DNA of 64,000 bases from Candidatus Binatia bacterium (GCA_050015455.1 JBEKBJ010000002.1:1091-65090), one strand, 5' to 3'. Shown: positions 8,695 through 42,977, numbered from the stretch's first letter. Numbers and translations are program-made. Notes: generated by a model not told the origin, from the sequence alone.

Positions 8695-9582
8695 TCACAA
8701 CCCGAGCCCGACCAGCAACTCGGTCGGTGGCCGAAAGCTTCTCAACGGCCACTGCAAGGCTTCGTCGATCTCGGCAAGCATTGCCGGCTTGTCGTGCGGT
8801 ATACGGCCACGTACGTCGAGGAAGTTGGAGACGTGGTCCGAGAGCAGCGTCGTCGGTCCTTCGAGGTGTTCGACCAGCAGCCGGGTTTCCTGCAACGCCT
8901 GATGTGCAGATAACAAGGTCAAATCGCCCGCCCTCCAGCGGTCGTGCCAAGGCGTGTCCGGCTGTGGCACGAACGTGCGCAGGCGAACGAAGGTCGGTGG
9001 CGCCGCATTGAGAACGCGAGCGCTACCGAGCGCGTGCTCGCGCCAGCGTTCTGCACCTGCAACACCGACCATGAGGTAGACCGAGAGCTCGATGCCAGCG
9101 CTCATCACGTGCCGGTAGGCCTCAATCGCCTGCTCCGGCGTGACTCCCTTGTTGATCGCCTGCAAGGTGGCCGCATCACCGGATTCCAGACCCGAGTGGA
9201 TGCGGCTGATGCCGGCGGCGGCCACGCGTCGCCATTCCTCCCCCGTCTTCTTGACCAGAAACTTTGCCGATCCGTACACCGTGATCCGGCGCAGGCGCGG
9301 AAAGCGCGCGCGGGCCGCTTCGCCGATCGTCGCCAGCTTTTCAGTGGGCAACACCGCAGAGTTGCCGTCGGCGAGGAATATAGTTTGCACACGATCAGGG
9401 CCGTACACCGCCAAGGCGATGTCGAGGTCTTCGATGATCTCCTCTATGGGCCGCACCCGGAACTTGCGGCCCTTGTACATGGAGCAAAAGGCGCACTTGT
9501 TGTGCGGACATGCCAGCGTCGCCTGGATGATCAGCGACCCGGCTTCACTCGGGGGACGATACACAACGCCCTCATAGCGCAT
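8695..9582 (-). CDS. radical SAM domain protein (unusual CX4CX2C cluster motif)
   Basis: ACPHNKCAFCSMY cluster motif near the N-terminus, with glycine-rich SAM-binding-like segments downstream. Start taken at the ATG (MRYEGVV) preceded by a GAGAGG Shine-Dalgarno; the ORF-track start at 9717 is probably an over-extension. Confidence 0.65.
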   Translation of the reverse strand: MRYEGVVYRPPSEAGSLIIQATLACPHNKCAFCSMYKGRKFRVRPIEEIIEDLDIALAVYGPDRVQTIFLADGNSAVLPTEKLATIGEAARARFPRLRRITVYGSAKFLVKKTGEEWRRVAAAGISRIHSGLESGDAATLQAINKGVTPEQAIEAYRHVMSAGIELSVYLMVGVAGAERWREHALGSARVLNAAPPTFVRLRTFVPQPDTPWHDRWRAGDLTLLSAHQALQETRLLVEHLEGPTTLLSDHVSNFLDVRGRIPHDKPAMLAEIDEALQWPLRSFRPPTELLVGLGL

Positions 9583-9723
9583 ATTCAGCCTCTCGTAGTG
9601 CGTCACACGGCCGAAACGTGTGTGGTCTCGACCCACTTGGATACATACACCGGCAGGCCGCAGATGTGTAGCGTCCCCGCCGAATCCGCTCTCGGACTTC
9701 TGCAGCGGACGCAACACCAGTTG

Positions 9724-10344
9724 TTACAAATGCCCGACACAGTCCAGCGCTTCCGCGTACCAGGCTTCGTGATCGCGCGCCAGAATATGGATCGAGCCGA
9801 GCGCAACACACAGCTGGCGACGGTGCACTTCGTCCACCCCGAGCAGCTCCGAGACAATGGAGCGGATCACGCCTTTGTGCAGCACGAACAGCAGCTCGCC
9901 CGTAGGCGCCTGCGCCAGGACTCGGTGCAGCGTGCGCGCCACCCGTTCATGGAAGTCACGGCTGGACTCGCCTCCGGGATACACGAATTCGCCATGGCGC
10001 ACTTGCCACTGCGCGTACAACGCCGGCTGCCGCTCCCGGATCTGTTCGGCGGTGAGCCCCTCCCACTCACCAAAATCGATCTCGTCGAACCCGGCCAGTG
10101 GCGTCACCGGCTGCGCACCGCCGGTAACGATCCGCGCCGCCTCGGCGCTGCGCGACAATGTGCTGCTGTAAGTGGCGACAAAGCTTTGCGAGATCAAGGC
10201 GCCGCGCACCCGTTGCATCTGGGCGCGCCCGAGTTGGCTCAGCGGCACGTCGGTGCGGCCGTAGTAACGGATGCTCGATTCGCCCTCGGTCTCACCGTGG
10301 CGCACGAGCGTCAGGCGCGTCGGCTCGCCGGCGCGTCGGCTCAC
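9724..10344 (-). CDS. histidine phosphatase family protein (phosphoglycerate mutase-like / CobC-like)
   Basis: LVRHGETE catalytic RHG motif, second His in FVLHKGVIR, ~200 aa. The GTG start overlaps the stop of the upstream HD gene by 4 nt. Confidence 0.8.
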   Translation of the reverse strand: MSRRAGEPTRLTLVRHGETEGESSIRYYGRTDVPLSQLGRAQMQRVRGALISQSFVATYSSTLSRSAEAARIVTGGAQPVTPLAGFDEIDFGEWEGLTAEQIRERQPALYAQWQVRHGEFVYPGGESSRDFHERVARTLHRVLAQAPTGELLFVLHKGVIRSIVSELLGVDEVHRRQLCVALGSIHILARDHEAWYAEALDCVGHL

Positions 10345-11630
10345 CTGCGTGCCCCCACCTGGTGCTCGCTCGGATAGCCGAAGATCTCACGGGCCGCCGC
10401 TGCTGTACGTCCCGCCACCGCCTCCGGTACGAACACGTACAGGCGCCAGAGGCCGGCGTAGCGCGCTTCCAACGCTTGGATTTCGGAACTTGGCTGGCCG
10501 TCGACGACGTTGAGCGAATGGATCCCCTTCGGCGTCCGCACCAGAACCGCAGCCTCCTTCATCACCGTCATAGCGGGACAGTAGAGGATGACTTCCGAGG
10601 GCTCGCACCCGGTCTCGCGCGCCAATATCTCTTCGGCCTCGCGCCGATTGTGCGCCGATTCGTGGAAGCGTTCGACCAGCCCTCGCCGCTCCTCCGCTGG
10701 CACCGTCAGCGGCGAGATCACGTAGCCGCGCTTGAGCAGCGCGCGCCGCTCCAGGCGGTCCGCCAGGCCGGCGATGCGCGGGTCGGGAAGCGCCGCTGTG
10801 GGAATCTTATGCAGTCGTTGCAGCAGCGTCCAGTCGTTGAGCCGCAAGAGCTCGTCTTCATCCAAGGCGCCGTGTTCCCGCGCCAGTTCGACCGCTTTGG
10901 AGATCATCGCACCGGATGTGACTTTGGCGTGGTGGTAGTAGACACGTTCGGTGAGGAAGTAGCGCAGGCGCAGAAGCTGCACAGTTTCGGAACGGGCGTC
11001 CGGCCGCTCCATACCGTGCTTCGTCATGTCGACTACCAGTTGACCGTCTTCGACGCAGAAGTAACGAAAAATGCGGTCATCGTAGCTTGCCGCTAGGCCG
11101 GCAAAGTACGCATCGCGCCGCAGGTAGTCGAGCAGGTCCGCGTCGACGGTGCCGGCGACCACCTCGCGTGCCCAGGGCGGCACGGCCGCCGCACTCGCGG
11201 GCGCCCCGAGCAGCGCCGCCAGCGGCTCTCTGAGTCCAAGCGCCTCCAGGAGCGCCCCCAATCGGCCGGCAAACAACTTCACCAACCGCGTGCCCTTGTC
11301 GTGCCGCGGAAACAGACGGCGCTCGTCCTCCAGCGTGTGCCCGAAGGGCACGTGAGTGACGTCATGCAGCAACGCCGCCACCCCGATCAGTTGCTCCAGC
11401 TGCTGGTCCACTGCCGTGCCCGCGTCCCGTACGGCGGCGATGATCCGCTTGCTGAGCGCATTCACACCGAGCGAGTGATCAAAACGCGTATGCAGGCACC
11501 CCGGATACACCAGGCTGGCGGTGCCGAGTTGTTTGATGCCGCGCAGCCGCTGCAGCTCCGGTGAATCGAGCACCTCCTCCTCGACCGGGTCGAGGGAGAT
11601 GTCACCGTGGATGGCATCGCGAATGAGCAT
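10341..11630 (-). CDS. HD-domain phosphohydrolase (dGTPase-like)
   Basis: RFDHSLGV HD motif, LLHDVTHVPFGH, ~430 aa, typical of dGTP triphosphohydrolase-like HD proteins. ATG at 11630; the ORF-track GTG is at 11639. Confidence 0.8.
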   Translation of the reverse strand: MLIRDAIHGDISLDPVEEEVLDSPELQRLRGIKQLGTASLVYPGCLHTRFDHSLGVNALSKRIIAAVRDAGTAVDQQLEQLIGVAALLHDVTHVPFGHTLEDERRLFPRHDKGTRLVKLFAGRLGALLEALGLREPLAALLGAPASAAAVPPWAREVVAGTVDADLLDYLRRDAYFAGLAASYDDRIFRYFCVEDGQLVVDMTKHGMERPDARSETVQLLRLRYFLTERVYYHHAKVTSGAMISKAVELAREHGALDEDELLRLNDWTLLQRLHKIPTAALPDPRIAGLADRLERRALLKRGYVISPLTVPAEERRGLVERFHESAHNRREAEEILARETGCEPSEVILYCPAMTVMKEAAVLVRTPKGIHSLNVVDGQPSSEIQALEARYAGLWRLYVFVPEAVAGRTAAAAREIFGYPSEHQVGARR

Positions 11631-11760
11631 AGCACCCACGATACCCTTGCCGGCGGCGCTCGTCGAACCGCGGCGGCCGTGTTCCTATGACCTCATTCGA
11701 CAGGTTTCCTCTTCCTTCGACTCATTGCTGGCCGCTCTCCCCTCAGGTAAGGTCCGGCCG

Positions 11761-12633
11761 ATGCTCGACCTACTGAATCGGATCGCTGGGATGCTCGTGC
11801 TGCGGCCGTACGTGTTCGTGTTCTTCGCAGTGTATCTGGTCGCGGCGGTGAGCAAGATGGGGTGGAAGAAGACGCTGGTGTTCACGCTGCTCGCTTATAG
11901 CGTAGCCTTTGCCGCGGAGTTTTCATCTACACGGACGGGATTCCCGTTCGGCCTTTACCACTACGTGGACACCACTCGCGATCGCGAGCTGTGGATTTCC
12001 AACATTCCGTTGTGGGATTCTCTCTCGTTCACTTTCCTGTGTTACTTGGGCTTCAGCTTGGCGGTGCTGACGTACTCGCCGTTACTAATCCGCCGGGGCG
12101 ATATGCAAGTTGTGGACGCCTGTGAGATCCGCGAGTCCCGCCGCGTCCTGGTCACCGCGACGATGTTGGTGACGCTGATTGACGTGGTGATTGATCCACT
12201 CACGGTACGCGGCGATCACTGGTTTCTGGGCAAGATCTACTATTACCCAATTGCCGGCATCTACTTCGGCGTGCCCATCAGCAATTTCATCGGCTGGGCT
12301 ATGGTTAGCGCGATCACCATTTCTCTGTTCCAGTGGTTCGAGCGCCGCCAGTGGCTCAGCTCCGACCGGGTGCGGCCCGCCGGCGTGCGCCATCTGCCGT
12401 TCGCTGGTCTCATCGAGCCGCTTCTGTACCTGAGCGTGCTGCTGTTCAATGTCATCCTCACCTTCGTCATCGGCGAGAGTCTATTGGGCATCATCGCCGT
12501 CATGATCTATCTGCCGGTCGGTGTGTTGTTCACCGCGAACTTCATCGATCCGCGCCGACGGGCCGATGCAACGCAGCTGGCCACGCACCGCTACGACTTC
12601 CCGCACTCGCCGATCACTGCACTATGGGGTTGA
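11761..12633 (+). CDS. polytopic integral membrane protein (family uncertain; carotenoid-biosynthesis-associated membrane protein-like)
   Basis: About 290 aa with 7-8 predicted TM helices. Start re-picked at the first ATG after the convergent HD gene ends (the ORF-track start at 11521 overlaps that gene). Confidence 0.45.
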   Translation: MLDLLNRIAGMLVLRPYVFVFFAVYLVAAVSKMGWKKTLVFTLLAYSVAFAAEFSSTRTGFPFGLYHYVDTTRDRELWISNIPLWDSLSFTFLCYLGFSLAVLTYSPLLIRRGDMQVVDACEIRESRRVLVTATMLVTLIDVVIDPLTVRGDHWFLGKIYYYPIAGIYFGVPISNFIGWAMVSAITISLFQWFERRQWLSSDRVRPAGVRHLPFAGLIEPLLYLSVLLFNVILTFVIGESLLGIIAVMIYLPVGVLFTANFIDPRRRADATQLATHRYDFPHSPITALWG

Positions 12634-12655: not shown

Positions 12656-14161
12656 CTACGGGAGAACACCGGTGTGGCACTCACTGCAGTTCATCTCTTG
12701 CCACGCGCCGCCGATGTCCTCGGGATGCTCGAACGTCAGCCCCCCTGGCTCGGTGGAATACGCGAGCTGCTCGCGCTTCCCTTGCGCCAGAATGATGTGG
12801 CACGCTCCGCACTCCTTGGTGATGATCTTCCCGCCGGCGTTCTTATGCGATCCGTCGTGGCAACGGTAGCAGCCGGAGAACACGAGGTGGCCGACATTAT
12901 CCGGGTAGATGTCCCAGCGCGCCTTCATCCTGGGGAAGAAGTTCTCCCCGTAGATTTCCTGCACTGCGGCGACGGCATGCGCGATCGCGTCGCCTCGAGT
13001 CCGCAGCACCTCGGGGTATTTATCACGGTAGAACTCCGTCACGCCGGCGTCGATGGCGCCCAGCGCCGCCTCGGTGGACTCGTACGTTGCTGCCAGCAAC
13101 TCCACGGCGGTGCGCTTGATGAACGGCAGCGTCGCATCGATCCTACCCGTATCCATCGCGAGATTCACCGCGTAGCTCGGTGACTGGAGAATGTGGGTGG
13201 GGCGGTCATGGCAGTCCATGCAGTCCATTGTCCGGATCTGCGCGCGCGAGACCTCTTCCTCGGAGAGGGGGGCGTCGGTGGAAACGTATTCGGCAACCTC
13301 GCCGGTCTTCAAGTTGGTCATGCGCACCCAGGGTATGTGCTGCCGCTGTTTGTCGGTGGCGATGTACTCCAGGCGATTGGCGATGTTCATGTGCCAGTGA
13401 ATCCCTTCGGTTTGCCCGGTCGTCGGGCTGCCACCGCCGGTCTTGATGAGCAGATTGATTTCCCAGCGCGTGTTCTGCTCGTCGGGGAGAAAATGCACGA
13501 GCTGCTTTTGTTGGCCTCCGAAGAATTGCTTGGGCCAGTGGCATTGCTCGCAAGTCTGCTGCGCCGGGCGCAGGCTGTGGATCGGCGCCGGAATCGGGCG
13601 TGGATACTTGTTGAGCGTGACCGCATACACTTGATACATGCCCGACAGCTTAGATTTGACGTACCAATCGGCTCCGGCACCCACGTGGCAGTCGACGCAG
13701 CGGACCCTCGCGTGGGGCGAGTGTTGGTAGGTGGTGTACTCCGGCTTCATCACTTGGTGACACAGCGCTCCACAGAAGGTCACGGATTCGGTGGATTCGT
13801 AGACTCCGTAGCTGCCAAAGACGGTCAGGAAGAGTAGGAAAACCGAGCCGATGATGAAGACCACCGTCGCGTTGCGGTACCCCGGATCGTTCAGATCGAT
13901 GACTGGAAATCGCAGGATGGACGCGGTGCCCGTTCGCGTAAAGTGCCGGCGTTCGATGAGCATACCCACTGGAATGAGCAGCAGACCGAATAGCAAGACA
14001 GCAGGCACAAGGACGAAGATGAGTAAGCCAGCATAGGGGGCCTGAGCAGCGCCCGTCGTCGTGTGGAGAATCACCAGGAAGCCGAACACCAGCAGCGCCA
14101 ACGTAGAGATCGTAGCGCCCACGTAGCTGACGCGGTTATGAACAAGCTTGGGGAAGATCAT
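12656..14161 (-). CDS. membrane-anchored multihaem c-type cytochrome (7 haem motifs; ImcH/NapC-NirT-like)
   Basis: Two N-terminal TM helices, then six CXXCH motifs (CVDCH, CEQCH, CMDCH, CYRCH, CGACH, CSECH) plus one CX3CH (CGALCH). The ATG overlaps the stop of the upstream PEP-utilising gene (ATGA at 14158-14161). Confidence 0.85.
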   Translation of the reverse strand: MIFPKLVHNRVSYVGATISTLALLVFGFLVILHTTTGAAQAPYAGLLIFVLVPAVLLFGLLLIPVGMLIERRHFTRTGTASILRFPVIDLNDPGYRNATVVFIIGSVFLLFLTVFGSYGVYESTESVTFCGALCHQVMKPEYTTYQHSPHARVRCVDCHVGAGADWYVKSKLSGMYQVYAVTLNKYPRPIPAPIHSLRPAQQTCEQCHWPKQFFGGQQKQLVHFLPDEQNTRWEINLLIKTGGGSPTTGQTEGIHWHMNIANRLEYIATDKQRQHIPWVRMTNLKTGEVAEYVSTDAPLSEEEVSRAQIRTMDCMDCHDRPTHILQSPSYAVNLAMDTGRIDATLPFIKRTAVELLAATYESTEAALGAIDAGVTEFYRDKYPEVLRTRGDAIAHAVAAVQEIYGENFFPRMKARWDIYPDNVGHLVFSGCYRCHDGSHKNAGGKIITKECGACHIILAQGKREQLAYSTEPGGLTFEHPEDIGGAWQEMNCSECHTGVLP

Positions 14162-16743
14162 GGGTCCAGAGAGTTTTCTGCGCGTCTAACCAGTCCAGCC
14201 AGCTCGGCGCGGAGCTTCCCCGCGAAGTAGGCGACCATGCCGGCGTCAGCCATAGCCATGTCCAGTTGGCGGGTGTGTATCATCAGGTAGCCCAGGGCCC
14301 GTACGCTGTCGAGGGCCTCGGCGTCGCTCAAGTGGTCCCGGCGCGCTCGCGCGGCGTCGGCACGGATGGTCACAGTGAAGCCAATTCCCTCCAGCGGTTC
14401 GGACATGAGATGGAGGCGGGCCTGTTTGCGAGCCATGTCGGCCCCGCCGCCCTGGAACGTGAACAACACGAAGTTCTCCTCTGGATCCGGACCCGCGAGG
14501 ACCTCCACCGTAGCGAAATGAGCCCCCAGCCGCGACTGTAGGTTCATGAAGTCGCACCCCACCAAGAAGTAGTTGCCCTCCTCCCAGCCGGCGCCGCTCT
14601 CCAGCTCCGGCCGCATAGTCGACTGCACGATGACCGAAGCCAGCCCGGAGCCGGTGACCGGCGGCCCGTCCCAGGACACGGCCAGCATACCCTGCCACAG
14701 AGCCAGCCAGGGTCGACTGGCGATCTGCTCCAAGCGCACGTACTTGCCGCTCACCTCTTCCGTGAAGCCGCCGCCGACATCGATGAGCCGCCACTGCATA
14801 GGGGCGTCGCAATAGAGCTGCCTAGCGCCAGCCACAGGGAATGCTTGCCCGTCCAGACTGAAGATCTCGTGCACCGCCTGCTCATGACAGAAGCGGGTCA
14901 GGTCGTGCAGCGTGCGGCAGTTTTCGACCCTGAACTGCGAGGAGGCTGGGTCCAAGAGGTTCAGAGGCACGGTCAACGCAATGAGTTGCTCAAGGGTACG
15001 CCGGAGGGGAGTTTGCGGAGGAGACACTGCCGGCCGCGCTCTCAGCAGCCCCTCTACACGGCCTGGGTAGACGGCCCGCCGATCCGCATCCACGGTGACC
15101 AGCTCTCCCGGCTGGAGGCGCTCCAAATCCGGTCCCAAGCCCAGAAGCGCCGGCACCCCGAACTCCCGCGCCACGGTGGCTAAGTGGCCGGCCACCCCGC
15201 CCTGGCCTGCCACCAAGGCCGTGGCCCACCTAAGGAGAGGAGCCCAACGTGGCAGGGGCCGCTCTACAACCAACACCTGCCCGGCTTGGAAGATCAGGGC
15301 ATCGTGTCCGGTGTGCACCCATTGCACCACTCCGGCGGCCGCCCCCGGCGCGGCGGTGAGCCCGCCGCTGATGATGGGATCGGGCAGCCCATCAACCAAC
15401 GGCTGAGCTACTGCTGAGGCCTGGCGGTGCAAAGGGCGACATTGCAAGTACACCAGTCGCCCTGCTTCACTTAAAGCCCACTCCAAGTCCTGAGGCCCAC
15501 CGAAGGCCGCCTCGACCTTTTTGGCTTGGCTCGCCAATTTCAGGGCCAAGTCATTGCTGAGCGGGCTCGTGTCCCTTAGCTCCGACGGCAGCGCGGCCGA
15601 CAGCACGCCGCTGGATGGGTCGCATTGGTAGAAACGGTCCTGGCGGCCCGTCCGGCGCTCCAGGGCTCCCCCTTCGGCGTCTACGAGAATCTCCTCGGCC
15701 TCCACGGAGCCGTCCACTACACCCTTGGGCAAGCCCCAGCAAGCACTGATGCGTACCCTGCCGTCGGCCGGGTCCAGAGGCGAGGCGCTATAAACCACCC
15801 CTCCGGCCTGGGCCGGGAGCATCACCAGGCAGCCCACAGCCATGGCGAGGTCTTGGTCTCTAAGACCATAGTGGTGGTAGTAGCTGAGAGCCTGCGGGCC
15901 GTAAGCGCTGGCGATTACTTCGCGGTAGGCCTCGCCCAAGGCGGCGGGCGCAACGTTCAGCTCGGTGCGGAATTGGCCGGCAAAGGAAGCAGCGCCCACG
16001 TCCTCGCCCAAGGCGCTAGAGCGCACCGCAAGCCTCAACTCAGGACCGTGGCGCTGGGCGAGCCGCTCGCAGGCGGCGGCCATCTCGCGATCCAGGTCAG
16101 CGGGTAGCTCGCCCTGGGCGAACAGCCGTTGCAACGCCGAGCAGGCGGAAAACAGCTCATCCACTTTGGTCACACCCTTGATCTGCAACAGCCGATTGAT
16201 CTCAGCGCGCAGGCCGTTGTGCTCCACGAAGCTGTTATAAGCCGCAGTGGTTATCACAAACCCGTCGGGCACCTTCAGCCCCAGCCGGTTGCCCAGTTGT
16301 GCCAGTGTGGCCATCTTGGGGCCGGCCAGCTCATCAGACCCAACGCACAGTGCACCCAGCTCAACCACGAGGGGGCCTTGGGGCAAGGGCCGCTCTCCGG
16401 CGACCAGTTGGTCCAGCTCCTGTTTCAGGGCGTTGAAGCGCTCCATAAGCGCGGGGTAGCGTTTGGGGGCAAGCCTCTCCAGTTCTTGGATCATGGCCAA
16501 CACGCTCACCGCCATTTCGGTGGCCGCCGAGCGCAGGCGGGCCATGGCGACAAGTTCAGGACTCTGTTGAGCCCCTTGAAGTTCGGCCATGATGGTCAGT
16601 GCCCGGCTGTTGGCCTTGAGCAGGTTGCGGTAGCTCAGGAACCGCCTTGCCAGGCGGGCGCGCAACTCGGCCAGCGCCGCTTGATCCTGGGCGCCGAGAC
16701 GGCCGCTGAACAGAGACTTGAGCAGATTGCCCAAGCCGAGCAT
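14158..16743 (-). CDS. PEP-utilising enzyme family phosphotransferase (PpsA/RPH-like), paralogue 1
   Basis: 861 aa. PPDK_N-type ATP-grasp region (LVVELGALCVGSDELAGPKMATLAQLGN...VPDGFVITTAAY). A central mobile phosphohistidine domain (GGVAGHLATVAREFGVPALLG). A C-terminal ~300 aa that is not a canonical PEP-utilisers TIM barrel. Confidence 0.8.
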   Translation of the reverse strand: MLGLGNLLKSLFSGRLGAQDQAALAELRARLARRFLSYRNLLKANSRALTIMAELQGAQQSPELVAMARLRSAATEMAVSVLAMIQELERLAPKRYPALMERFNALKQELDQLVAGERPLPQGPLVVELGALCVGSDELAGPKMATLAQLGNRLGLKVPDGFVITTAAYNSFVEHNGLRAEINRLLQIKGVTKVDELFSACSALQRLFAQGELPADLDREMAAACERLAQRHGPELRLAVRSSALGEDVGAASFAGQFRTELNVAPAALGEAYREVIASAYGPQALSYYHHYGLRDQDLAMAVGCLVMLPAQAGGVVYSASPLDPADGRVRISACWGLPKGVVDGSVEAEEILVDAEGGALERRTGRQDRFYQCDPSSGVLSAALPSELRDTSPLSNDLALKLASQAKKVEAAFGGPQDLEWALSEAGRLVYLQCRPLHRQASAVAQPLVDGLPDPIISGGLTAAPGAAAGVVQWVHTGHDALIFQAGQVLVVERPLPRWAPLLRWATALVAGQGGVAGHLATVAREFGVPALLGLGPDLERLQPGELVTVDADRRAVYPGRVEGLLRARPAVSPPQTPLRRTLEQLIALTVPLNLLDPASSQFRVENCRTLHDLTRFCHEQAVHEIFSLDGQAFPVAGARQLYCDAPMQWRLIDVGGGFTEEVSGKYVRLEQIASRPWLALWQGMLAVSWDGPPVTGSGLASVIVQSTMRPELESGAGWEEGNYFLVGCDFMNLQSRLGAHFATVEVLAGPDPEENFVLFTFQGGGADMARKQARLHLMSEPLEGIGFTVTIRADAARARRDHLSDAEALDSVRALGYLMIHTRQLDMAMADAGMVAYFAGKLRAELAGLVRRAENSLDP

Positions 16744-16770
16744 CCGGTTGCCTCCAGCCAGAGACCGGGC

Positions 16771-17163
16771 CTAAGAGAAAGCCCGGCGCATCAGCTGTCC
16801 GCGCTCTCGGGCATCCCGGATACGTTCGATCAAGTCGTCCAGCTTGACCGGCTTGATCAGGTAGTCAAAAGCCCCCAGCTCCACACCCTCCACCCCGGAC
16901 CCCACCGAGGCGTGGCCGGTGAGGAGGATCACCTCCACTTTGGGGTCGCGGTCCTTGATAGCCTTGAGGGTCGCAATGCCGTCCATGTCGGGCATCTTCA
17001 CGTCGAGCACCACCACCTCAGGCGGGTCCTCAGCCACGAGTTTGAGGGCCTCCATGCCGGTGTCAACTCCCCGCGCGTCCAACCCCCGGCGTTGAAGTCG
17101 GCGCACCAGCGATTCCAGAAAGTCGCGCTCGTCGTCCACGACCAGCACCTTGCACTGGCTCAT
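16771..17163 (-). CDS. single-domain response regulator (CheY-like receiver)
   Basis: 130 aa. VLVVDDE, phospho-acceptor D in VLDVKMPDMDG, and conserved K in YLIKP. Confidence 0.9.
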   Translation of the reverse strand: MSQCKVLVVDDERDFLESLVRRLQRRGLDARGVDTGMEALKLVAEDPPEVVVLDVKMPDMDGIATLKAIKDRDPKVEVILLTGHASVGSGVEGVELGAFDYLIKPVKLDDLIERIRDARERGQLMRRAFS

Positions 17164-17185
17164 TGCTATTCTCCTTCCGGCCGTG

Positions 17186-18913
17186 TCAGCCCGTCCCTGA
17201 CCCCGCGATGGGCAGGCTGGCGATGAACGTGGCCCCCTGACGGGGCGGGCTCTCGAACGCCAGGCTACCGCCCATTTTCTCCATGATGGAGTGGCTTATG
17301 GAAAGCCCGAGCCCGGTGCCTTGCCCCGGCGCCTTGGTGGTGAAAAAGGGATCGAAAACCCGTTCGCCCACCTCGGGCGGCACGCCCGGCCCACTGTCGG
17401 TTACCCTCACTTGCACGAAGGTGCCGTCACGCGTGGTGGCGATCACCAACCTACCGTTCTGGCCTGCGGCGTCAATGGCGTTGTTCAGCAGGTTCAGCAG
17501 TACCTGCTGCAGTTGGGCGCGGTCGGCCGGGATGAGCGGGAGGCCCGAATCCAGTTTGAGTTCCACAGCCAGGTTGTGGAAGCGCGCTTCCTTCTCGACA
17601 AAGGAGAAGGATTCTTTGACCACCTGGTTGACGTCTAGCTTCTCCAGGGTTGGCTCCGTACTGCGAGCGAACTTGAGCATGCGGTGGGTCACACCTCGAG
17701 CCCGTTCCACTTGGCCGAGTATCTTGGTGAGATTGTCTCGGCAGATATTGCCTTCCGGCAGCTGCGCCAGCACCTCAGGCTGCAAGATGTCTCCCAGCTC
17801 GCCGGCCAGCTCACCGATGGCGGCCAGGGGGTTGTTTATCTCATGCGCTACGCCAGCGGCCATGCGGCCCAAGGATACCAACCGAGCCGAGTGGGCCACT
17901 TGGGCGTCCAGTGCGGCGCGCTCACGGTCGTTGGCCTGGAGCTGCTTGATGAACAGCCGCACCAACAACAACACCAAAGCCAGGATGAGCAGGTTGGCGG
18001 CCCACACGATGGCCATGTCCACCCGTCTCGCCTGGCTCAAGGGTCCCGGCATCTCTCGGGGGTCCTGATCCACCACCAACAGCCAAGGCATGCTCGACAG
18101 CCATGTAAACGCCGTAAACAGCGTGCGCCCGCCCGGAACCTGCCGCTCCACGACCGTGTTTCCCGGTGGCACCGCCTCAATATTGAAGTCGGTGGGCGTA
18201 AGGATTCCCCCAGCGAAGCGGCTTGGGGTCTGCAATTGTCCGCGTGAGTTTACGATGTAGGCGTCGCCACTGAGGCCCACCTGGGCGCTGCGGACAAGGC
18301 GGTTGAACACCTCAGAGTCTATGGTGGCCCGCAGGATCCATGTCTCGCCTTCATCCTCCTGTTTCACCGCGATCACGAAGTGGGGCACCTTGCGTACGCC
18401 GAGAAAGACATCGCTGACATGCACCCCCCGGAGCATGACCTGCTGGAACCACTCCGCGTCGCGGTAGTTCTGGTTCTGCAGGGGATAGGGTCCCACATAG
18501 GACCTGTGGTTGCCCGAGGCATCGATGACCCCTAAGTCCAAAAAGGTCGAGGTGCGGCGGTTGAGCACTTGGAGGGCCTTTGTCAGCTCGCGCTGGTCGC
18601 TAAGTCGGGCCAGTTGGCCGGAATGGGCCAATACCTCCAGCACGGCAGTACGCTCGGCTAGGAAGAGCTCGATGGCCTCGGCGCGGTTGACCGCCCGTAC
18701 CAGCATCTCCTCCTTGAGCTTCTCCTGGTTGGCACTGACGAAGTAGTAGTAGATCCCGACCCCCAACAGGTTGAGGGGCAGAAGGGCCACCACGAGGCCG
18801 ACCAGGGTCATGCGCCGAGCAAGCTGGGAGTAATGCTTGATCACGAACCGGACTCCACGTTGCCAGATGTGGTGAGATTGTAGTCGCCCCTGCTGAAAGC
18901 CTCGGCCAGCCAT
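17186..18913 (-). CDS. sensor histidine kinase with periplasmic Cache-like domain
   Basis: N-terminal TM helix, a ~250-aa periplasmic region, and a second TM helix. HisKA H-box (VAHEINNPLAAI) and HATPase_c N/G-boxes (LLNNAIDA, DSGPGV, GTGLGL). The ATG at 18913 overlaps the 3' end of the upstream paralogue; an alternative ATG is at 18811. Confidence 0.85.
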   Translation of the reverse strand: MAGRGFQQGRLQSHHIWQRGVRFVIKHYSQLARRMTLVGLVVALLPLNLLGVGIYYYFVSANQEKLKEEMLVRAVNRAEAIELFLAERTAVLEVLAHSGQLARLSDQRELTKALQVLNRRTSTFLDLGVIDASGNHRSYVGPYPLQNQNYRDAEWFQQVMLRGVHVSDVFLGVRKVPHFVIAVKQEDEGETWILRATIDSEVFNRLVRSAQVGLSGDAYIVNSRGQLQTPSRFAGGILTPTDFNIEAVPPGNTVVERQVPGGRTLFTAFTWLSSMPWLLVVDQDPREMPGPLSQARRVDMAIVWAANLLILALVLLLVRLFIKQLQANDRERAALDAQVAHSARLVSLGRMAAGVAHEINNPLAAIGELAGELGDILQPEVLAQLPEGNICRDNLTKILGQVERARGVTHRMLKFARSTEPTLEKLDVNQVVKESFSFVEKEARFHNLAVELKLDSGLPLIPADRAQLQQVLLNLLNNAIDAAGQNGRLVIATTRDGTFVQVRVTDSGPGVPPEVGERVFDPFFTTKAPGQGTGLGLSISHSIMEKMGGSLAFESPPRQGATFIASLPIAGSGTG

Positions 18914-21426
18914 TCCACCATGTGCGGCCCCTCCATCAGCATGTCCAACTGGCGGGTGAAGAGCACGAACCGCCCGACTTCTTCAAGAACGCGCGCGATC
19001 TCGTCTAGCCCGCGCTTCTTCAGGAAGGCGTTGACCGCGTCACCAGTGCGCTCGGCGTTGAAGCCTAGGCCGTCGAGGATGCGCTGCACCAGCACCGCCC
19101 TGAGCGAGCGGCGATCCTCCGTGGCCGCGCCCCCATGGAATCGGAAGCTCACATAGTTGTCATTCAACCGTTGACCGCAATAGCAGTCCAAGGCCGTAAA
19201 GTGGTAACCCACCCGGCAGTTGAAGTTGAGGTACTCGGCGCCCAGAATAGCGTATGCTCGGCCACCCATGCTGCGCTGACCGGCCTCCTGAGGCGGAGCC
19301 AAGAGTGAGCCGCTGAAGACCGAGGCCAGACCTTTGAGGGTCACCGGTCGGGGAGACTTCCAGTCGATGCGCTGGTCGGTGAGCCCCTTCAGGAAGGCCG
19401 CGCCCGGTTTGGATTCCACGGCATCGAGTCCGGGCCTTTCCCCCGCGTCGGCACTCAGCCCGCCGCCCAAGTCGATGATCCACAAATCAAAGGGCAGCCC
19501 AACCTCCAGACGGCGGGCTTCTCCCCCTGCCCTCTGTCCCACCTCGTCGCCCAAGCGGAACATCTCCCTGAAAGACATCTCATGCATGAACCGGATCAAG
19601 TCGTGGAAGCTTTTGCAGTTCTCGGGCCGGAACTCCGGGGCCTTAGGGTCGGTGAGATTCAACCGGGTGATGAGCTGAACCGCCCTGAGCGCCAGGGGAA
19701 GCGCCTGCACCCTGCTGGCGGCGGCCTCAGTGGTGATCTTCTGGTCCAGCAATGCACCTACCCTGCCGGCGTAGACCTTGCGGTTGCCTGCGTCCAGGGT
19801 GATCTCCAAACCTGGAGTGAGGATTTCCAACGCCCCAGGCACGCCCAATAGCGCCGGCACCCCGTACTCCCGAGCGAGGGCGGCCAAGTGCCCAGCGACA
19901 CCACCCACCTCGGTTATCAGCGCCGCGGCCGCAGGCAGCAGCGCCGCCAGGGCCGGGGAAGACTCCCTAGCCACCAGTACCGCGCCGCTGGGAAAGCCAG
20001 CCATGTCGTCCATCCCGCGCACCAGATGCACCGGCCCACAGGCGGTGCCCGGCCGGCCGGTCTGCCCGCCACTTAAGATCACGGGCGCGGTCACACTGAC
20101 CTGAGTGGGGCTGGCCGGGCCCTGCACCACACGCAAGGGCCTAGCTTGCAATATCCACAGGTGTCCCTGGCTGTCCCGAGCCCACTCCACATCCAAGGTC
20201 TGGCCCAGGACGTTCTCGATGCGGGAGCCCATGGCAGCCAGCTCCTGGATAGCGTCGGCCGGCAGCACTTGTCCGCCGGCCTGCTCCAAATCAAGCTTCC
20301 GGCGTTGTACCCCTTCCGGCCCCACCACCAACATGTAATCTCTTCGGCCCGAGTGACGCACGGTGTGGCCGGCGTGGGGGCTCCGATCCACCGCGTAAAC
20401 GTCCGCGTCCAGCGATCCGTCAACCAGCCCCAGTCCGAGGCCTGGGACCGCGCTGATCACGGCCTGTCCGCTGCCTCCAGCCAGGGGATCGACGGTGTAG
20501 AGCACTCCACTGGCTGCCGGTTCGATCATGACCTGCACCAGCACGGCCATCTCAGCGTCCAAATCCGAAAGCCCCTGCCTTTGTCGGTAGGCCAGCGCCT
20601 GGGGAGAATACAAGGAGGCCACTACCGCCAGATACGCCTCGGACGCGTCGTCTGGGCGCACCCCCAAGCGGCTCGTGTAGAGCCCCGCGAAGGACGTGTT
20701 GGTGTCCTCGCCTAGAGCGCTGGAGCGCAGCGAGAGCGCAGCTCCGCCTTGGGCGGAGCTCAGCGCGCGGCACCGTTCCAGCAGTTCAAGTTCCAGATCC
20801 GCCGGAAGCTTGAGCGTGGCGAACTCGGCCTGGAAGCGGCGTGACCGCTCTTCCACGGCAGCCACATCGCCTCCCTCCGTCAGCATGGCCACCTGCCGTA
20901 GCCGTGCCCCCAGTCCAGTTTCGGCCATCACGCGACGGAAGGCCCCCGTGGTTATGACCAGCCCCTCCGGCACCGGCAGCCCTTGCTTGCGCAGGATAGC
21001 AAGGTTGCCGGCTTTGGCTCCGGTCAGATGATCCAGTCCAGGCTCCAAGGCATCCAGGGGAAGGAAGGTCGAGGCGACCGCGTCTTGGGCCTCGGTGGCC
21101 AGCAGCGCGTCTATCTGGTGGCGCACCTCGTTGAAGGGTGCCAACAGGGATATATAACGGTCGCCGGATATCAGGTTCAGATGGCGGATCATCAGAAAGA
21201 CCTTTGCACTGGCGGCGATGTAGCGGGAACGCAGAAAGTCCACCCCCAATACACCAGTCCGCTCCAGCGCACTCTGGATCTCAGCGATGATCTCCAACAC
21301 CTCGTTGTTGGCCCTGAGAAGGTACTGGAACTCCTTGAAGCGAAGCTTGAGCTGCACGAAGTCCGGACCAGACCGCCGCGAGGATCCGCGCAGGGTGCGC
21401 CAAGCCCTTGTAAAGCGGTTGGTCAC
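18841..21426 (-). CDS. PEP-utilising enzyme family phosphotransferase (PpsA/RPH-like), paralogue 2
   Basis: 861 aa, same architecture as 14158-16743. PPDK_N region (GAKAGNLAILRKQGLPVPEGLVITTGAF) and mobile His domain (GGVAGHLAALAREYGVPALLG). The ORF-track start is GTG. Confidence 0.8.
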   Translation of the reverse strand: MTNRFTRAWRTLRGSSRRSGPDFVQLKLRFKEFQYLLRANNEVLEIIAEIQSALERTGVLGVDFLRSRYIAASAKVFLMIRHLNLISGDRYISLLAPFNEVRHQIDALLATEAQDAVASTFLPLDALEPGLDHLTGAKAGNLAILRKQGLPVPEGLVITTGAFRRVMAETGLGARLRQVAMLTEGGDVAAVEERSRRFQAEFATLKLPADLELELLERCRALSSAQGGAALSLRSSALGEDTNTSFAGLYTSRLGVRPDDASEAYLAVVASLYSPQALAYRQRQGLSDLDAEMAVLVQVMIEPAASGVLYTVDPLAGGSGQAVISAVPGLGLGLVDGSLDADVYAVDRSPHAGHTVRHSGRRDYMLVVGPEGVQRRKLDLEQAGGQVLPADAIQELAAMGSRIENVLGQTLDVEWARDSQGHLWILQARPLRVVQGPASPTQVSVTAPVILSGGQTGRPGTACGPVHLVRGMDDMAGFPSGAVLVARESSPALAALLPAAAALITEVGGVAGHLAALAREYGVPALLGVPGALEILTPGLEITLDAGNRKVYAGRVGALLDQKITTEAAASRVQALPLALRAVQLITRLNLTDPKAPEFRPENCKSFHDLIRFMHEMSFREMFRLGDEVGQRAGGEARRLEVGLPFDLWIIDLGGGLSADAGERPGLDAVESKPGAAFLKGLTDQRIDWKSPRPVTLKGLASVFSGSLLAPPQEAGQRSMGGRAYAILGAEYLNFNCRVGYHFTALDCYCGQRLNDNYVSFRFHGGAATEDRRSLRAVLVQRILDGLGFNAERTGDAVNAFLKKRGLDEIARVLEEVGRFVLFTRQLDMLMEGPHMVEWLAEAFSRGDYNLTTSGNVESGS

Positions 21427-21446
21427 GACCGTGACCTTCTCCGCCC

Positions 21447-21731
21447 TTAGCCTCTACGGCACGGGCTCTGGTCGGAGACGCTGTCGAGGGCGCCGAAGAG
21501 CCCCACTGGCCGACAAAGCCGCTCCCCTGGAGCAGGGGGACGCTCGGGAGCCCAACGCCTGAGTGACCAGCGAGCAGCCAACACCGTCACCAGGGCACAG
21601 GGCACGAACACCTGGCTGAAGCGCCAGGCGATCGCGGCAGGGTCGAAATGGCTCCACCAGATAGCCAACGTCAGCTCTGTCAGGAGCAGTATGTCCATGA
21701 CCGCCAGAATCGCCAGTCTCCGAAAGTTCAT
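21447..21731 (-). CDS. hypothetical small membrane protein
   Basis: 94-aa ORF with two hydrophobic segments and no recognisable family. Weak. Confidence 0.25.
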   Translation of the reverse strand: MNFRRLAILAVMDILLLTELTLAIWWSHFDPAAIAWRFSQVFVPCALVTVLAARWSLRRWAPERPPAPGERLCRPVGLFGALDSVSDQSPCRRG

Positions 21732-21791
21732 TTCTTTGTACCCTCTAAAGCTGAGTGGGCAGGTCTCCGTGGGGGCCGGCCCGCTCCCGTG

Positions 21792-22109
21792 TTACTGTTT
21801 GCGGAGGTCCTGCTTGCTGACATTCATTACCTTCAGCGCCGAGAAGGAGTTGCCCTCGACCTTGTAAGCTACACGGATGACGTCCCCGGGGGCAGGAGTT
21901 AGCCCCACCTTGGCGTTGGCCAGATTGAACACCGCCGTCTGTCCAGGGATGGGGTTCAATTGGGGTTGAGTGTTTTTCAGCTCCAGGACCTTATCGGCAA
22001 CACTGAATCTCAAGCACTCCCCTTGGTAGACGTGGCTCTCACCCACGTCGCTGCAACTCAGCGCAGACATGACCATTACCACCAGTACGGGGATGAACAG
22101 CTTCTTCAT
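21792..22109 (-). CDS. hypothetical lipoprotein
   Basis: N-terminal signal peptide with a lipobox-like MSALSC. 105 aa, no recognised domain. Confidence 0.45.
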   Translation of the reverse strand: MKKLFIPVLVVMVMSALSCSDVGESHVYQGECLRFSVADKVLELKNTQPQLNPIPGQTAVFNLANAKVGLTPAPGDVIRVAYKVEGNSFSALKVMNVSKQDLRKQ

Positions 22110-22126
22110 CTTAACGCCTCCACTTG

Positions 22127-23164
22127 TCAGGCCACATTGGCCAGGCTATTGGCCCGCTTCTCACGAAGCTCCTGGGCCGCACCTCTGAACATGATGTTCA
22201 TTATGTAGATGCAGATGGCGGTAATGGCTCCCAAAATAATCACTGTAGCTGAAGCGGTGAAGCCATACTGCTTCAAGATGATGGAGATCATGCAGGCCAC
22301 CACTGCACAGCCGAACAGCAGGCGGATGCCGTAGCCCTTGGTATACTTGGTGGCCACGGTACCGATCTGAGCTCCAATGGCCGCGCCGCAGAGCATCACA
22401 AAGACCGCCACGATCTCGATCCGACCCTTCAAACTGTAGGTGAAGGCGCCGTAGAGGCCGCTGAACATCACCTCGAACAGATCGGTGCCCACCGCCACGT
22501 GGGTGGGCACGCCAACGAAGTAGACCAGCGACGGCATGCGCAGTAGACCGCCGCCGATGCCGAGGAAGCCGGCGAGCACGCCCGTGAGGAAACTCACCAG
22601 CACCGGCAGCCACATGGAACAATAGAGGCCGGCCACCTTGAAGTGAACCATCGGCGGAATCCTGATCTTGTGCAGGGTCGGGGCCCAGTTCACACCGCCG
22701 GTAGCGCCGGTGTGGCTGGGGACGTCGCTCTTCTTCTTGCTGCGCACCGCCTTGCTATAGTCATAAAAGACCATCAACGAGATCAGGGCCAGGAACACCA
22801 CGTAAGTCCAGCGTACTACTGGCCCCACCTGGCCGATGCGCTCCAAGGCCATGACGAGCCGCGCGCCCAGCTCGATGCCAAACACGGTACCGATGATCAT
22901 GATGAAGCCCAGCTTGTAGTCCACGTTGCCGAACTTGGAGTGGCGCATGGTGGAGATCATCGATTTGCCCGCCACGTGGGCTATGTCCGTACCGATGGCG
23001 AACGCCATGGGAAAGCCCAGGATGTTGAGACCCGGCGTCACCATCCAGGCGCCCCCCATGCCGAAGAAGCCGCCGATGACACCTACCGAGTAGCCGATCA
23101 GCAGCAGACCCGGCCAGAAGACGTCCACGCCCGCGATGGGCATATGCATGTACATCCATTCCAT
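22127..23164 (-). CDS. TauE/SafE family sulfite/anion exporter
   Basis: 345 aa, two internally repeated 4-TM halves. Gly-rich motifs (GGFFGMGGAWM, GFLGIGGGLL) typical of PF01925. Confidence 0.8.
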   Translation of the reverse strand: MEWMYMHMPIAGVDVFWPGLLLIGYSVGVIGGFFGMGGAWMVTPGLNILGFPMAFAIGTDIAHVAGKSMISTMRHSKFGNVDYKLGFIMIIGTVFGIELGARLVMALERIGQVGPVVRWTYVVFLALISLMVFYDYSKAVRSKKKSDVPSHTGATGGVNWAPTLHKIRIPPMVHFKVAGLYCSMWLPVLVSFLTGVLAGFLGIGGGLLRMPSLVYFVGVPTHVAVGTDLFEVMFSGLYGAFTYSLKGRIEIVAVFVMLCGAAIGAQIGTVATKYTKGYGIRLLFGCAVVACMISIILKQYGFTASATVIILGAITAICIYIMNIMFRGAAQELREKRANSLANVA

Positions 23165-23197
23165 AGTCTTGTGCTCCTTGCCCCCTGAAGCGCGGGA

Positions 23198-23491
23198 TCA
23201 ATGCTCCACGTGGCCGCCGCCCTCGCTCAAGTTCAGGCCGACGCGGCTCATGATCGCGTCCATCGTCAAACCCAAGAACCCTCCTAGCAGCGCGGTTAGC
23301 ACCACCGCCCAGATGGCGAACATCCAGACGTTCTCGTTGTAGAGGTTCGCCAGGTACAGGCTGAATCCCTTGAGTACCCGGGTGTCCGCCACCACCACCA
23401 GATCAGTGGCCTCCTCCGCTGCACTGGCCAAGCTGGGGAGCAAGGCCCCCAGCGCTCCCACTACGGCTACGATCTTTAGACGCCCTGTCAT
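23198..23491 (-). CDS. hypothetical small membrane protein (signal peptide + 1 TM)
   Basis: 97 aa. N-terminal signal-like segment and a C-terminal TM. Co-oriented immediately upstream of the TauE gene. Confidence 0.4.
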   Translation of the reverse strand: MTGRLKIVAVVGALGALLPSLASAAEEATDLVVVADTRVLKGFSLYLANLYNENVWMFAIWAVVLTALLGGFLGLTMDAIMSRVGLNLSEGGGHVEH

Positions 23492-24691: not shown

Positions 24692-24970
24692 TCACTTTCC
24701 GTTCGGCCGTCCGGCGATTCCGCGCACCGTTTCCGGCGCCCACGGCTTGCCGGTGCGGGTCGGGTGTCGTTCGGCGTTCAGCCGGTTGGCAATCGCCGCG
24801 AAGCTCAGCCGAAGGCAGAGACGCGCCAAGGTGCTGCGCCCGTCCCAAGTGGTCCGGTGCGTCGCAACCGGTGGCACCAGTGCCCAGGGAAGGCCAAGTT
24901 GACACTTTCTATTGAGACAGTTCCGTTGCTCAAACCCGCGCCGATCGCGACGCCGCACAAGGTGAATCAC
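24692..24970 (-). pseudogene. fragment of a large serine recombinase (recombinase domain)
   Basis: ...FAAIANRLNAERHPTRTGKPWAPETVRGI... matches the serine-recombinase 'Recombinase' domain pattern (LN.EGIPT..GK.W...TV..IL). No intact catalytic domain. Implies a decayed mobile element. Confidence 0.4.
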
Positions 24971-31200: not shown

Positions 31201-32348
31201 CTCGGCGTGGTCCCGCCAACTCCCATCACGTGCGGAGAATTGGCCGGATGATCCAAACAATTGCTCCCGTTGTCACCAGACGCAGCGAACCAGGTCTGCC
31301 CAATCGCGTTGGCGTTGGCGAAGATGCCGTCATTCGTTTGCTGCGTGGCCGCGGACGTGCCCGCTTCACAGCTTCCCCAGCTCGTGGTGACCACGTGGCC
31401 GGGGTTGTCGGTCACGATGCGGTTGTACAGCGTGGTGAAATCCGACAACGCGCTCGAGGCCGCCATGTAGTTGAGAATGACGGCGCCCGGTGCGGTGCCG
31501 TGCGCGTACTCAACGTCCAAGGAAACCTCGTCGGAGGGGTTGTTGAACGTACAACCGCTGGACCCAATCGCGCCAGTGCACACCTGGCCACTGCCACTCG
31601 GCAGCGCGGGCAGCCCCCATTGCGAGTCGAATGTGGCGACATCGGTGTCCAACCACGCGTAGGCTCCCGCGATCACCAGCGTCTGGCCCGCCCCCGCGTA
31701 GGTGCCGCCGTTGTCGTAGAATACCGCCAGGTCGTTCGGACTCAGGGCGCAGCAGTACGATCCGAACGCGGCACCGGGGGCGAGCGCGGGTTGTGTGCTC
31801 CGGCGGACGTTCGTGTGCATGCTGACGAGATCATCCAGACCGAGGATGCCCACGACGTCGCCGGCGATCTCGGCTGGCCACGTGGGTTCGTTGATGGCCG
31901 CGTAGTGTGTCTCCCCCCCGAAGATCACTCGGTAGGACTCCACGCCAAAGGCGTGTTCGAGCGCCGCAACACCGCCGACCGCTCCAACCAGCAGCCGATT
32001 GGAGAAGCGGTCGGTTACGGTAAAACCGTTGCCTGCGAGGTAGTCCACCACACCCTGCTCTGCATCGGCCGCCGGCGCATAACGGGCGTTGAATTCGTCT
32101 TGGGTCAGGAACTGACCGTATTGCGGGGAGTCAGGATTCTGCACCTCGGCGAGAAACCGTTCCAGGTCATCGCGATTTCTGAGCTCGAGGCCAACGACGA
32201 TGCTATGGCGAGTGGCGGGATGTTCGCGTTCCAGGATTGTCGCCTCGCCGAGGCGGGGGGACGTTGAATGTGCACGAGCGTACACGGGCGCTTGCAACCC
32301 CAGCGCTAGCAGTACGCCCGTCACCACGCTCGCAGCATTGATCCTCAT
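28257..32348 (-). CDS. giant secreted multidomain protein: signal peptide - propeptide/S53 sedolisin peptidase - CSLREA/Pmp-type beta-helix - Thr/Pro tandem-repeat linker - 2x novel 8-Cys C-terminal module
   Basis: 1363 aa. Signal peptide [25 protein letters not shown]53 motifs [10 protein letters not shown] (oxyanion Asp) and [14 protein letters not shown] (catalytic Ser). CTEAAL... followed by NSTFSGNSA beta-helix repeats. [10 protein letters not shown] repeats encoded by 30-nt tandem repeats. Tandem C-terminal modules [19 protein letters not shown]...ICPSCL...DGQIYCAGT. Confidence 0.85.
29060..29400. repeat. perfect/near-perfect 30-nt tandem repeat array (~10 units) encoding the [10 protein letters not shown] linker
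   Basis: Units such as ggcgtgttggtaatcgtcggcgtctgcgtt repeat head-to-tail inside the CDS. Confidence 0.8.
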
Positions 32349-42841: not shown

Positions 42842-42977
42842 TTGATCCTCGCTTTCTGCCTGGTGCGCAACAATTGGTTGGAAAACGCTGAAGCATTGGA
42901 GCCCGGACGTGCTGTTGGTGCCCAAGTCCTTTCCTCAGGCAGTCCATCCATGGCTCTTGTCTCATAGCGTAACGCGA

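Follow-up and report, generated by a model that had tools for sequence, protein, structure and literature searches.

What is the function of two genes related to phosphoenolpyruvate (PEP) synthase that enclose a two-component system and run directly into a gene for a multihaem cytochrome? The question is raised by a 64-kb stretch of DNA from Candidatus Binatia bacterium (GCA_050015455.1 JBEKBJ010000002.1:1091-65090), which was analysed as a whole and is called the window here; all coordinates are positions in this whole stretch. An earlier interpretation made from the nucleotide sequence alone (the sequence-only reading) had taken the locus for a signal-regulated, ATP-driven modification system tied to respiration. 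We propose instead that the locus combines signalling, permease and dikinase genes in a conserved eight-gene system, to whose 3' side an ImcH-type cytochrome has recently been added. In this system, a receiver would control a relay that passes a phosphoryl group from ATP through His520 to an acceptor held by a C-terminal domain. We give this reading a probability of roughly 0.45. The two dikinase-like proteins are referred to as Pps1 and Pps2, and their relatives as Pps-like proteins.

A dikinase with an unrelated C-terminal domain

Pps1 (14158..16743, minus strand) and Pps2 (18841..21426, minus strand; an alternative start gives 838 amino acids (aa)) are both 861 aa long and are 37% identical over ~826 residues (E = 5e-133). 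The sequence-only reading had described them as paralogues with a PPDK_N region and a mobile phosphohistidine domain, and the open reading frames (ORFs) and the Pfam matches agree with this description. Pfam places PPDK_N (PF01326) in both proteins with E = 3.8e-75 and 9.4e-67, as well as the PEP-utilizers mobile domain (PF00391) with E = 1e-14 and 6e-17, and finds no further domain in either. From Pfam, NCBIfam, alignments and an AlphaFold2 (AF2) model, Pps1 can be divided into an N-terminal three-helix region (16384-16743), an ATP-grasp domain (15406-16332), a swivel-His domain (15079-15291, with the catalytic His520 at 15184-15186) and a novel C-terminal alpha+beta domain (14161-15021), all on the minus strand. 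The corresponding minus-strand parts of Pps2, delimited with Pfam and NCBIfam, are an N-terminal helical region (21067-21426), the ATP-grasp domain (20125-21027), the swivel-His domain (19786-19995, with the catalytic His513 at 19888-19890) and the novel C-terminal domain (18844-19719).

The closest solved relative is PpsA (2OLS), which PDB sequence and fold searches align with the ATP-grasp and His domains only (28% identity, 459 columns). His520 aligns with the catalytic His of PpsA in 2OLS (GGVAGH vs GGRTCH) and is invariant in our alignment A4; the His domain that carries it spans residues 485-555 of 861. As judged from these comparisons, the Pps proteins have kept intact the catalytic machinery of a His-swivel dikinase. 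The fold search also recovers the swivel domains of Enzyme I of the phosphotransferase system (PTS). In the full-length AF2 model (predicted local distance difference test (pLDDT) 82), three long N-terminal helices occupy residues 18-115, and this helical region of ~120 aa is extra relative to PpsA.

Are these proteins then ordinary, if divergent, PEP synthases (pyruvate, water dikinases), as automatic annotation would have it? The Joint Genome Institute (JGI) name for them is 'pyruvate, water dikinase', while the metagenome-assembled genome (MAG) of Candidatus Binatia carries the name 'PEP/pyruvate-binding domain-containing protein', and the best NCBIfam matches are indeed PpsA models. These models match in a single stretch, across the ATP-grasp and His domains (residues ~136-570, profile positions 17-472 of 798), and the match stops there, at ~472. 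The scores are far below the equivalog cut-offs (263.7 bits vs 598; 258.1 vs 739.75), and where PpsA has its regulatory Thr, two residues before the catalytic His, Pps1 has Ala. The NCBIfam models for Rph, PigC and RedH match the ATP-grasp part only.

Further evidence against a PEP synthase comes from the C-terminal part. A canonical PEP-utilizers_C barrel was looked for in the last ~290 aa and not found even at E <= 10, where Pfam returned only noise. No NCBIfam model matches this region, nothing below E = 0.089 was found among PDB sequences with a C-terminal profile, and a Foldseek search of the C-terminal model against the PDB gave no fold relative (best E = 0.055). AF2 predicts for these ~290 aa (pLDDT 84, predicted template-modelling score 0.76) an alpha+beta fold with antiparallel sheets and a C-terminal helical hairpin. 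The predicted fold is not a (beta/alpha)8 barrel, in agreement with the proposal of the sequence-only reading that the ~300-aa C-terminus is not a TIM barrel. In the model, an unrelated alpha+beta domain of ~290 aa takes the place of the PEP/pyruvate TIM barrel found in PpsA, and we consider it extremely improbable that the proteins are ordinary PEP synthases.

The C-terminal domain is a novel one and strongly conserved. When 39 diverse sequences of it are compared, 21 positions do not vary; among these are (in Pps1 numbering) H613, D614, R617, H620, H742, N757, R772, R776, D796 and D828. One Cys is conserved in >=90% of the sequences that make up alignments A1, A2 and A4. The Pps-like proteins carry a putative acceptor domain without a detectable relative in Pfam or in solved structures.

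A large family with two subtypes

Pps1 and Pps2 belong to a large family that derives from PEP synthase and is uncharacterised. A search with a C-terminal profile collected 916 clusters at 50% identity (E <= 1e-30), and most of the listed full-length members are ~830-900 aa long. In a scan of GTDB species representatives, at least 586 species matched. The matching records are labelled Desulfobacterota, Acidobacteriota (Holophagae and Thermoanaerobaculia), Planctomycetota and Binatia, and the cultured carriers include Desulfocarbo indianensis and Desulfosarcina alkanivorans. Among the uncharacterised branches of the PEP-utilising/dikinase superfamily, this family is one of the larger ones. Alignments (A2 and A3 for the subtype of Pps2) split it into two subtypes, type 1 represented by Pps1 and type 2 by Pps2. 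We looked for domain fusions among the longest members (1078, 938 and ~895 aa) and found no extra Pfam domain. In the literature, we found no description of a Pps-like family.

Conserved gene neighbourhoods

In the window, nine minus-strand genes form a tight same-strand cluster from 23491 to 12656, with intergenic spacings in this order of 33, 17, 60, 20, -4, 22, 27 and -4 nucleotides (nt); the gene beyond the cytochrome gene, which is the ninth, is convergent. The first eight genes (14158-23491, minus strand) are the conserved unit. The cluster opens with a DVU0150-family small membrane protein (23198..23491), which has a signal peptide and a C-terminal transmembrane (TM) segment and is recognised by the Pfam PF28216 annotation of the identical gene in locus L001. 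It is followed by a TauE/SafE (TSUP) family permease of 345 aa (22127..23164; Pfam TauE, E = 7.5e-41). Two further products were recognised from their translations: a small lipoprotein of 105 aa with a lipobox-like ...SALSC motif (21792..22109), and a small membrane protein of 94 aa (21447..21731) whose position is kept among relatives. Pps2 comes next, then a membrane sensor histidine kinase with the order TM, dCache_1, TM, HisKA and HATPase_c (17186..18844), a stand-alone CheY-like receiver of 130 aa in which Pfam finds Response_reg only (16771..17163), and Pps1; all of these genes are on the minus strand. The tight minus-strand layout had been recognised in the sequence-only reading, but its extent was drawn too short: the four upstream membrane-protein genes, which extend the cluster to 23491, and with them the TauE/TSUP module, were missed.

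That reading had also placed the start of the kinase gene within the 3' end of pps2, which is true of both possible starts. Gene callers on identical metagenome contigs choose GTG at 18844 (GTGA, a 4-nt overlap with the Pps2 stop), while the longest kinase ORF (575 aa, 17186-18913) starts with ATG at 18913 and overlaps by 73 nt.

We then investigated how far these arrangements are kept among relatives. Every ORF in 80 loci from genomes and 80 from metagenomes (numbered with the prefix L) was translated and compared with the proteins of the window and of a Desulfosarcina locus, and subtype pairing was counted over 168 genes (93 of type 1 and 75 of type 2). The canonical type-1 cluster, checked with Pfam, starts with an NtrC-type activator and a dCache kinase; then come between one and three CheY-only receivers, a TauE-family permease of 444 aa, a ~230-aa protein with two TM segments and the Pps-like gene. 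Among 56 type-1 loci with enough upstream sequence, the order receiver, 444-aa TauE, ~230-aa TM protein, Pps is found in 35, and a receiver lies directly upstream of the Pps gene in a further 14. The type-2 module is made of the DVU0150-family small protein, the 345-aa TauE, the lipoprotein and the small TM protein, and corresponds to 21447-23491 in the window, immediately upstream of pps2.

The two modules hardly mix. The pair of 444-aa TauE and ~230-aa TM protein accompanies 49/93 type-1 genes and 0/75 type-2 genes; the DVU0150 module accompanies 16/75 type-2 genes and 1/93 type-1 genes. In relatives, the DVU0150-family gene recurrently adjoins the TauE gene next to type-2 Pps genes. Orthologues of the 345-aa TauE with 62-76% identity adjoin Pps-like genes in L059, L074 and L079, and a lipoprotein gene 3' of the TauE gene is also present in L059, L074, L090-L094 and L170-L172. 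A receiver is found within 3.5 kb of 79 of the 93 type-1 genes and 36 of the 75 type-2 genes, so that the link to a dedicated sensor pair, which the sequence-only reading had pointed out, is conserved. Taken together, these counts show that the Pps-like genes have a conserved, subtype-specific synteny with receivers, kinases and TauE modules. Such pairing of the Pps-like genes with TauE/TSUP modules and phosphorylatable stand-alone receivers points to a self-contained system of sensing, transport and phosphorylation.

The whole eight-gene order (DVU0150-family protein, TauE, lipoprotein, small TM protein, Pps2, kinase, receiver, Pps1) is kept in relatives at 88%, 84% and 49% identity, as well as in L093, where the C-terminal domain of Pps2 is 63% identical. 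The enclosure of the receiver and the Cache-type kinase by the two paralogues, seen in the window with Pfam and already described in the sequence-only reading, thus recurs in independent relatives at 49-88% identity. This recurrence indicates that the order Pps2, kinase, receiver, Pps1 is not a chance arrangement.

A proposed receiver-controlled relay

The phosphorylation site of the window receiver is intact and of the canonical CheY-like type (D10, D11, D54, T82, Y101 and K104). In an alignment of 162 sequences (the window protein and 161 relatives at >=45% identity), D54 and K104 are kept in 162/162, and position 82 is Thr or Ser in all of them. D10, D11 and the aromatic switch residue Tyr101 are each kept in 158/162.

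These observations suggest a mechanism in four steps. By homology, the ATP-grasp domain would phosphorylate His520 (Pps1) or His513 (Pps2) from ATP, yielding AMP and Pi. The His domain would then swivel, and its phosphoryl group would go to an acceptor bound by the C-terminal domain. From the subtype-specific synteny, this acceptor would most likely be a small anionic compound that the co-conserved TauE/TSUP module handles. Finally, the periplasmic-sensing dCache kinase may phosphorylate the stand-alone receiver, which would switch the dikinases on or off by protein contact; the near-universal adjacency and the intact switch residues are consistent with such a role.

The same receivers can be given a different part. 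The Pps-like proteins might be kinase-independent phosphodonors for them: ATP would charge the swivel His, in the way that PEP charges that of PTS Enzyme I, the phosphoryl group would pass to Asp54, the C-terminal domain or the N-terminal helices would dock the receiver, and the TauE module would be the regulated output. Two-component signalling would then have a second entry, driven by the conversion of ATP to AMP. Receivers are the most constant neighbours (79 of 93 type-1 genes) and often stand directly upstream of the Pps gene, as in the 14 loci counted above and in the window, and their acceptor Asp and Thr/Tyr switch residues are kept across the alignment just described. The Enzyme I swivel domains recovered in the fold search belong to donors to a protein. 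In Desulfomicrobium, moreover, a type-2 and a type-1 gene share an operon with a sigma54 activator (described in the last section).

Several further observations weigh against our proposal of a receiver-gated, small-molecule relay, and some of them favour direct transfer to the receiver. Several Pps paralogues can occur in one locus or genome (for example, L109, L115 and L118), and clusters with multiple kinases and multiple receivers exist. Such paralogue expansion and embedding are typical of signalling proteins and look more like signalling than metabolism, which favours the receiver as the acceptor. The 20-kb loci L048, L060 and L067 have the order receiver, TauE, TM protein, Pps and no detectable histidine kinase within 8-10 kb on either side. 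In the loci inspected, we recognised no conserved downstream gene for an enzyme acting on a phosphorylated product, which also speaks for a receiver as acceptor, and we found no biochemical data for any family member in the literature. There is one proteomic lead. In the proteome of Dissulfuribacter thermophilus, a 'PEP synthase' beside TauE (DITHS69_1990) and a 'TM protein co-occurring with TauE' (DITHS69_1989) are all up during thiosulfate disproportionation (PMC13490349). The locus tag of this 'PEP synthase', a possible member of the family, is inconsistent, being DITHS69_1988 in the table and DITHS69_1161 in the text. Should DITHS69_1988 be correct, expression of a type-1 cluster would be documented there for the first time.

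In L048, L060 and L067, the receiver is without a linked phosphodonor other than, possibly, the Pps-like enzyme.

On the other side, most loci contain a cognate dCache kinase, which makes a second donor unnecessary. The His, Asp and Arg residues that are invariant in the C-terminal domain resemble a catalytic site for a small anion, and substrate specificity is the easier explanation for the pairing of the two subtypes with two different permease modules. To our knowledge, protein phosphorylation is not known for any enzyme with ATP-grasp and swivel-His domains (PpsA, PPDK, Rph, glucan dikinases, PigC/RedH), which also counts against direct transfer to Asp54. We therefore regard the phosphodonor role as unlikely and prefer the receiver-gated relay to a small acceptor. 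A broader and rather doubtful idea would place the Pps-like proteins in a new class of signalling enzymes, whose relay (ATP to AMP and Pi) either phosphorylates stand-alone receivers directly or is gated by them to make a phosphorylated small-molecule signal. If this were true, anaerobes would gain a route into two-component signalling that does not start from a histidine kinase and that controls TauE-type permease modules.

The routine label 'pyruvate, water dikinase / PEP synthase' can mislead metabolic reconstruction and the interpretation of proteomes, for example when gluconeogenesis is deduced from induction. The induction of the 'PEP synthase' of D. thermophilus was read in this way (PMC13490349).

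A recently acquired cytochrome

The last gene of the nine (12656..14161, minus strand) encodes a 501-aa protein with a NapC/NirT-like core, recognised by the Pfam NapC/NirT and multihaem models. It has three hydrophobic segments (about residues 11-39, 37-72 and 94-121) and seven haem motifs, namely an atypical CX3CH (CGALCH at 130) and six CX2CH at 155-492, and is thus the seven-haem membrane cytochrome of the sequence-only reading. The ImcH family is described as ~495-519 aa long with three N-terminal TM segments, one CX3CH adjoining the membrane domain and about six CX2CH (PMC6295460). Judged against this published architecture, the cytochrome matches and may be called an ImcH-like inner-membrane multihaem cytochrome c. 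Homologues of this protein number more than 7,300, most of ~500 aa and named only 'NapC/NirT family cytochrome c'.

Does this gene make the dikinase pair a signal-regulated modification system tied to respiration or extracellular electron transfer, as the sequence-only reading had concluded from the coupled seven-haem cytochrome? The overlap itself is real: the ATGA at 14158-14161, which that reading had reported, is present in the sequence, so that the Pps1 stop overlaps the cytochrome ATG by 4 nt, and there is no intervening terminator. The arrangement is kept in relatives whose Pps1 is 88-95% identical. In L090, where identity is 95% for Pps1 and 93% for the cytochrome, the cytochrome gene follows pps1, and in L170 (88% on Pps1) all nine genes are arranged as in the window, with the same overlap. 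Within this lineage, co-transcription and translational coupling of the cytochrome gene with the cluster are probable. Its ImcH-type architecture, if it reflects function, would be that of a quinol-oxidising entry point for extracellular electron transfer.

Beyond these close relatives, the adjacency disappears. In L171 (84%), all eight other genes are kept, the cytochrome is absent, and a gene for an FAD oxidoreductase follows pps1 after a gap of 143 nt. The cytochrome is also absent in L006 (60%), L093 (63% on Pps2) and L172 (49%). No homologue of it was found in the 80 genome loci, and only 1 of the 168 family genes has one nearby, that one being L090, of the same lineage. The nearest orthologues of the cytochrome, at 79% and 73% identity, are found in unrelated genomic settings. 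In a DNA alignment, synteny breaks off within the last ~8 codons of pps1, which indicates that the 'translational coupling' is the product of a recent rearrangement. In the 64-kb window, there is no second multihaem cytochrome ORF (two or more CX2CH), and ten large ORFs scanned elsewhere in the window contain no electron-transfer domain.

The cytochrome is thus a recent, lineage-specific addition outside the conserved system. As a property of the family, the link to respiration is largely refuted, and we consider the respiratory reading very unlikely. The shallow phylogenetic depth of the adjacency guards against over-reading the locus as a respiration-linked modification system. We also considered the cytochrome as a member of the conserved system and rejected it, because the adjacency exists only at >=88% Pps1 identity and the orthologues are elsewhere.

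Beyond the cytochrome, a gene of the carotenoid-synthesis family (11521-12633) is convergent with it and separates it from a tight minus-strand trio (8695-11639) that encodes an HD/HD_assoc_2 phosphohydrolase, a protein of the histidine-phosphatase superfamily and a radical SAM protein. This block accompanies the cytochrome in L170 and is absent from L171.

Other features of the window

We searched the window for signals that could reveal the regulation of the cluster. The sigma54 promoter consensus has 36 matches in the window vs 35 expected, which is chance level, and scans of the window for sigma70 promoters and terminators were at or below chance. No sigma54 activator gene was detected in the window. 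An Rfam scan of the window gave no match, and in the window and seven related loci Rfam revealed no riboswitch near the cluster that would indicate a ligand, finding only an unrelated cobalamin riboswitch and a tRNA. PADLOC found no relationship to defence systems. Upstream of the cluster, at ~24700-24830 (1915-2052 in L001), there is a 45-aa gene call with a weak match to Recombinase (PF07508), which may be a remnant of a mobile element.

Farther upstream on the minus strand (28257-37816) are two giant ORFs. One encodes a protein of 1363 aa with a Pro-kumamolisin activation domain and an extensin-like repeat region, and the other a protein of 1733 aa with seven SBBP beta-propeller repeats, DUF7948 and a beta-helix; the AT skew at 28-30 kb is strongly negative (-0.30). 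A second signalling hub lies at 46164-52615, where a 1302-aa hybrid kinase with an N-terminal 7TM region, four PAS domains and two receivers is encoded near a receiver-HATPase protein (46164-50072 and 51539-52615, respectively); it has no evident link to the Pps cluster. A dynamin-family GTPase of 597 aa is encoded at 55819-57612. Three ORFs of 613, 438 and 676 aa (41084-42925, 52964-54280 and 61292-63322) have no Pfam match at E <= 1e-4.

Comparison with known systems

Like PpsA (Enzyme Commission number 2.7.9.2; Neisseria meningitidis 2OLS), the Pps-like proteins have PPDK_N followed by a central swivel His domain, in the same order and with the catalytic His conserved. Unlike PpsA, they have no C-terminal TIM barrel and no regulatory Thr, possess the additional N-terminal region of ~120 aa and score below the family cut-offs. 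Their genomic context also differs, being a two-component system and a TauE permease and not gluconeogenesis.

The sequence-only reading had compared the architecture of the Pps proteins with those of rifampin phosphotransferase (Rph) and the glucan dikinases. This comparison is imprecise. The proteins are not ordinary PEP synthases, but their domain order is that of PpsA. Rph and its relatives use a swivel-His relay to a non-pyruvate acceptor (PMC4844700). With Rph, PigC and RedH, the Pps-like proteins share a homologous ATP-grasp domain (Foldseek E = 1e-19; NCBIfam 150-200 bits). The Rph equivalog cut-off is far away (177-200 bits vs 999 in NCBIfam). In Rph, the acceptor domain is central and the His domain C-terminal, whereas in the Pps-like proteins the His domain is central and the acceptor domain C-terminal, and the two acceptor domains are unrelated. 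Glucan, water dikinase has N-terminal carbohydrate-binding modules, and its His domain precedes a C-terminal ATP-binding domain. In the Pps proteins, by contrast, PPDK_N is N-terminal to the His domain, and Pfam finds no carbohydrate-binding module. PTS Enzyme I shares the fold of its swivel phospho-His domain with the Pps-like proteins and offers a precedent for His-to-protein transfer; however, it has no ATP-grasp domain, and its donor, PEP, is bound by a TIM barrel, which the Pps-like proteins lack.

For the cytochrome only, the counterpart is ImcH (GSU3259) of Geobacter sulfurreducens. Compared by family description, the two appear to share a length of ~500 aa, three N-terminal TM segments, CX3CH, six CX2CH and a NapC/NirT-like core.

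The upstream module of the window corresponds to the DVU0145-0150 cluster of Desulfovibrio vulgaris, a long-standing 'unknown' that is induced during syntrophy. DVU0150-DVU0146 contain a DVU0150-family protein, a TauE-like protein and a lipoprotein in the same order as the window; they are predicted to be regulated by sigma54 and DVU0151 (PMC4641369) and are induced in syntrophic co-culture (PMC4265775). The window differs from D. vulgaris in that the sigma54 activator and promoter are not detected, and in that two Pps-like genes and a dCache kinase and receiver come after the module within one cluster. A related case is a Desulfomicrobium sp. MAG (L079, 2886-10882), in which a DVU0151-type HAMP-sigma54 activator gene is followed after 23 nt by a type-2 and then a type-1 Pps gene, divergent from a DVU0150-TauE pair. 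An activator gene followed by a type-2 Pps gene is also found in L098, L106, L118 and L132. The arrangement in L079 ties the dikinases to the predicted regulator of the syntrophy-induced cluster of D. vulgaris.

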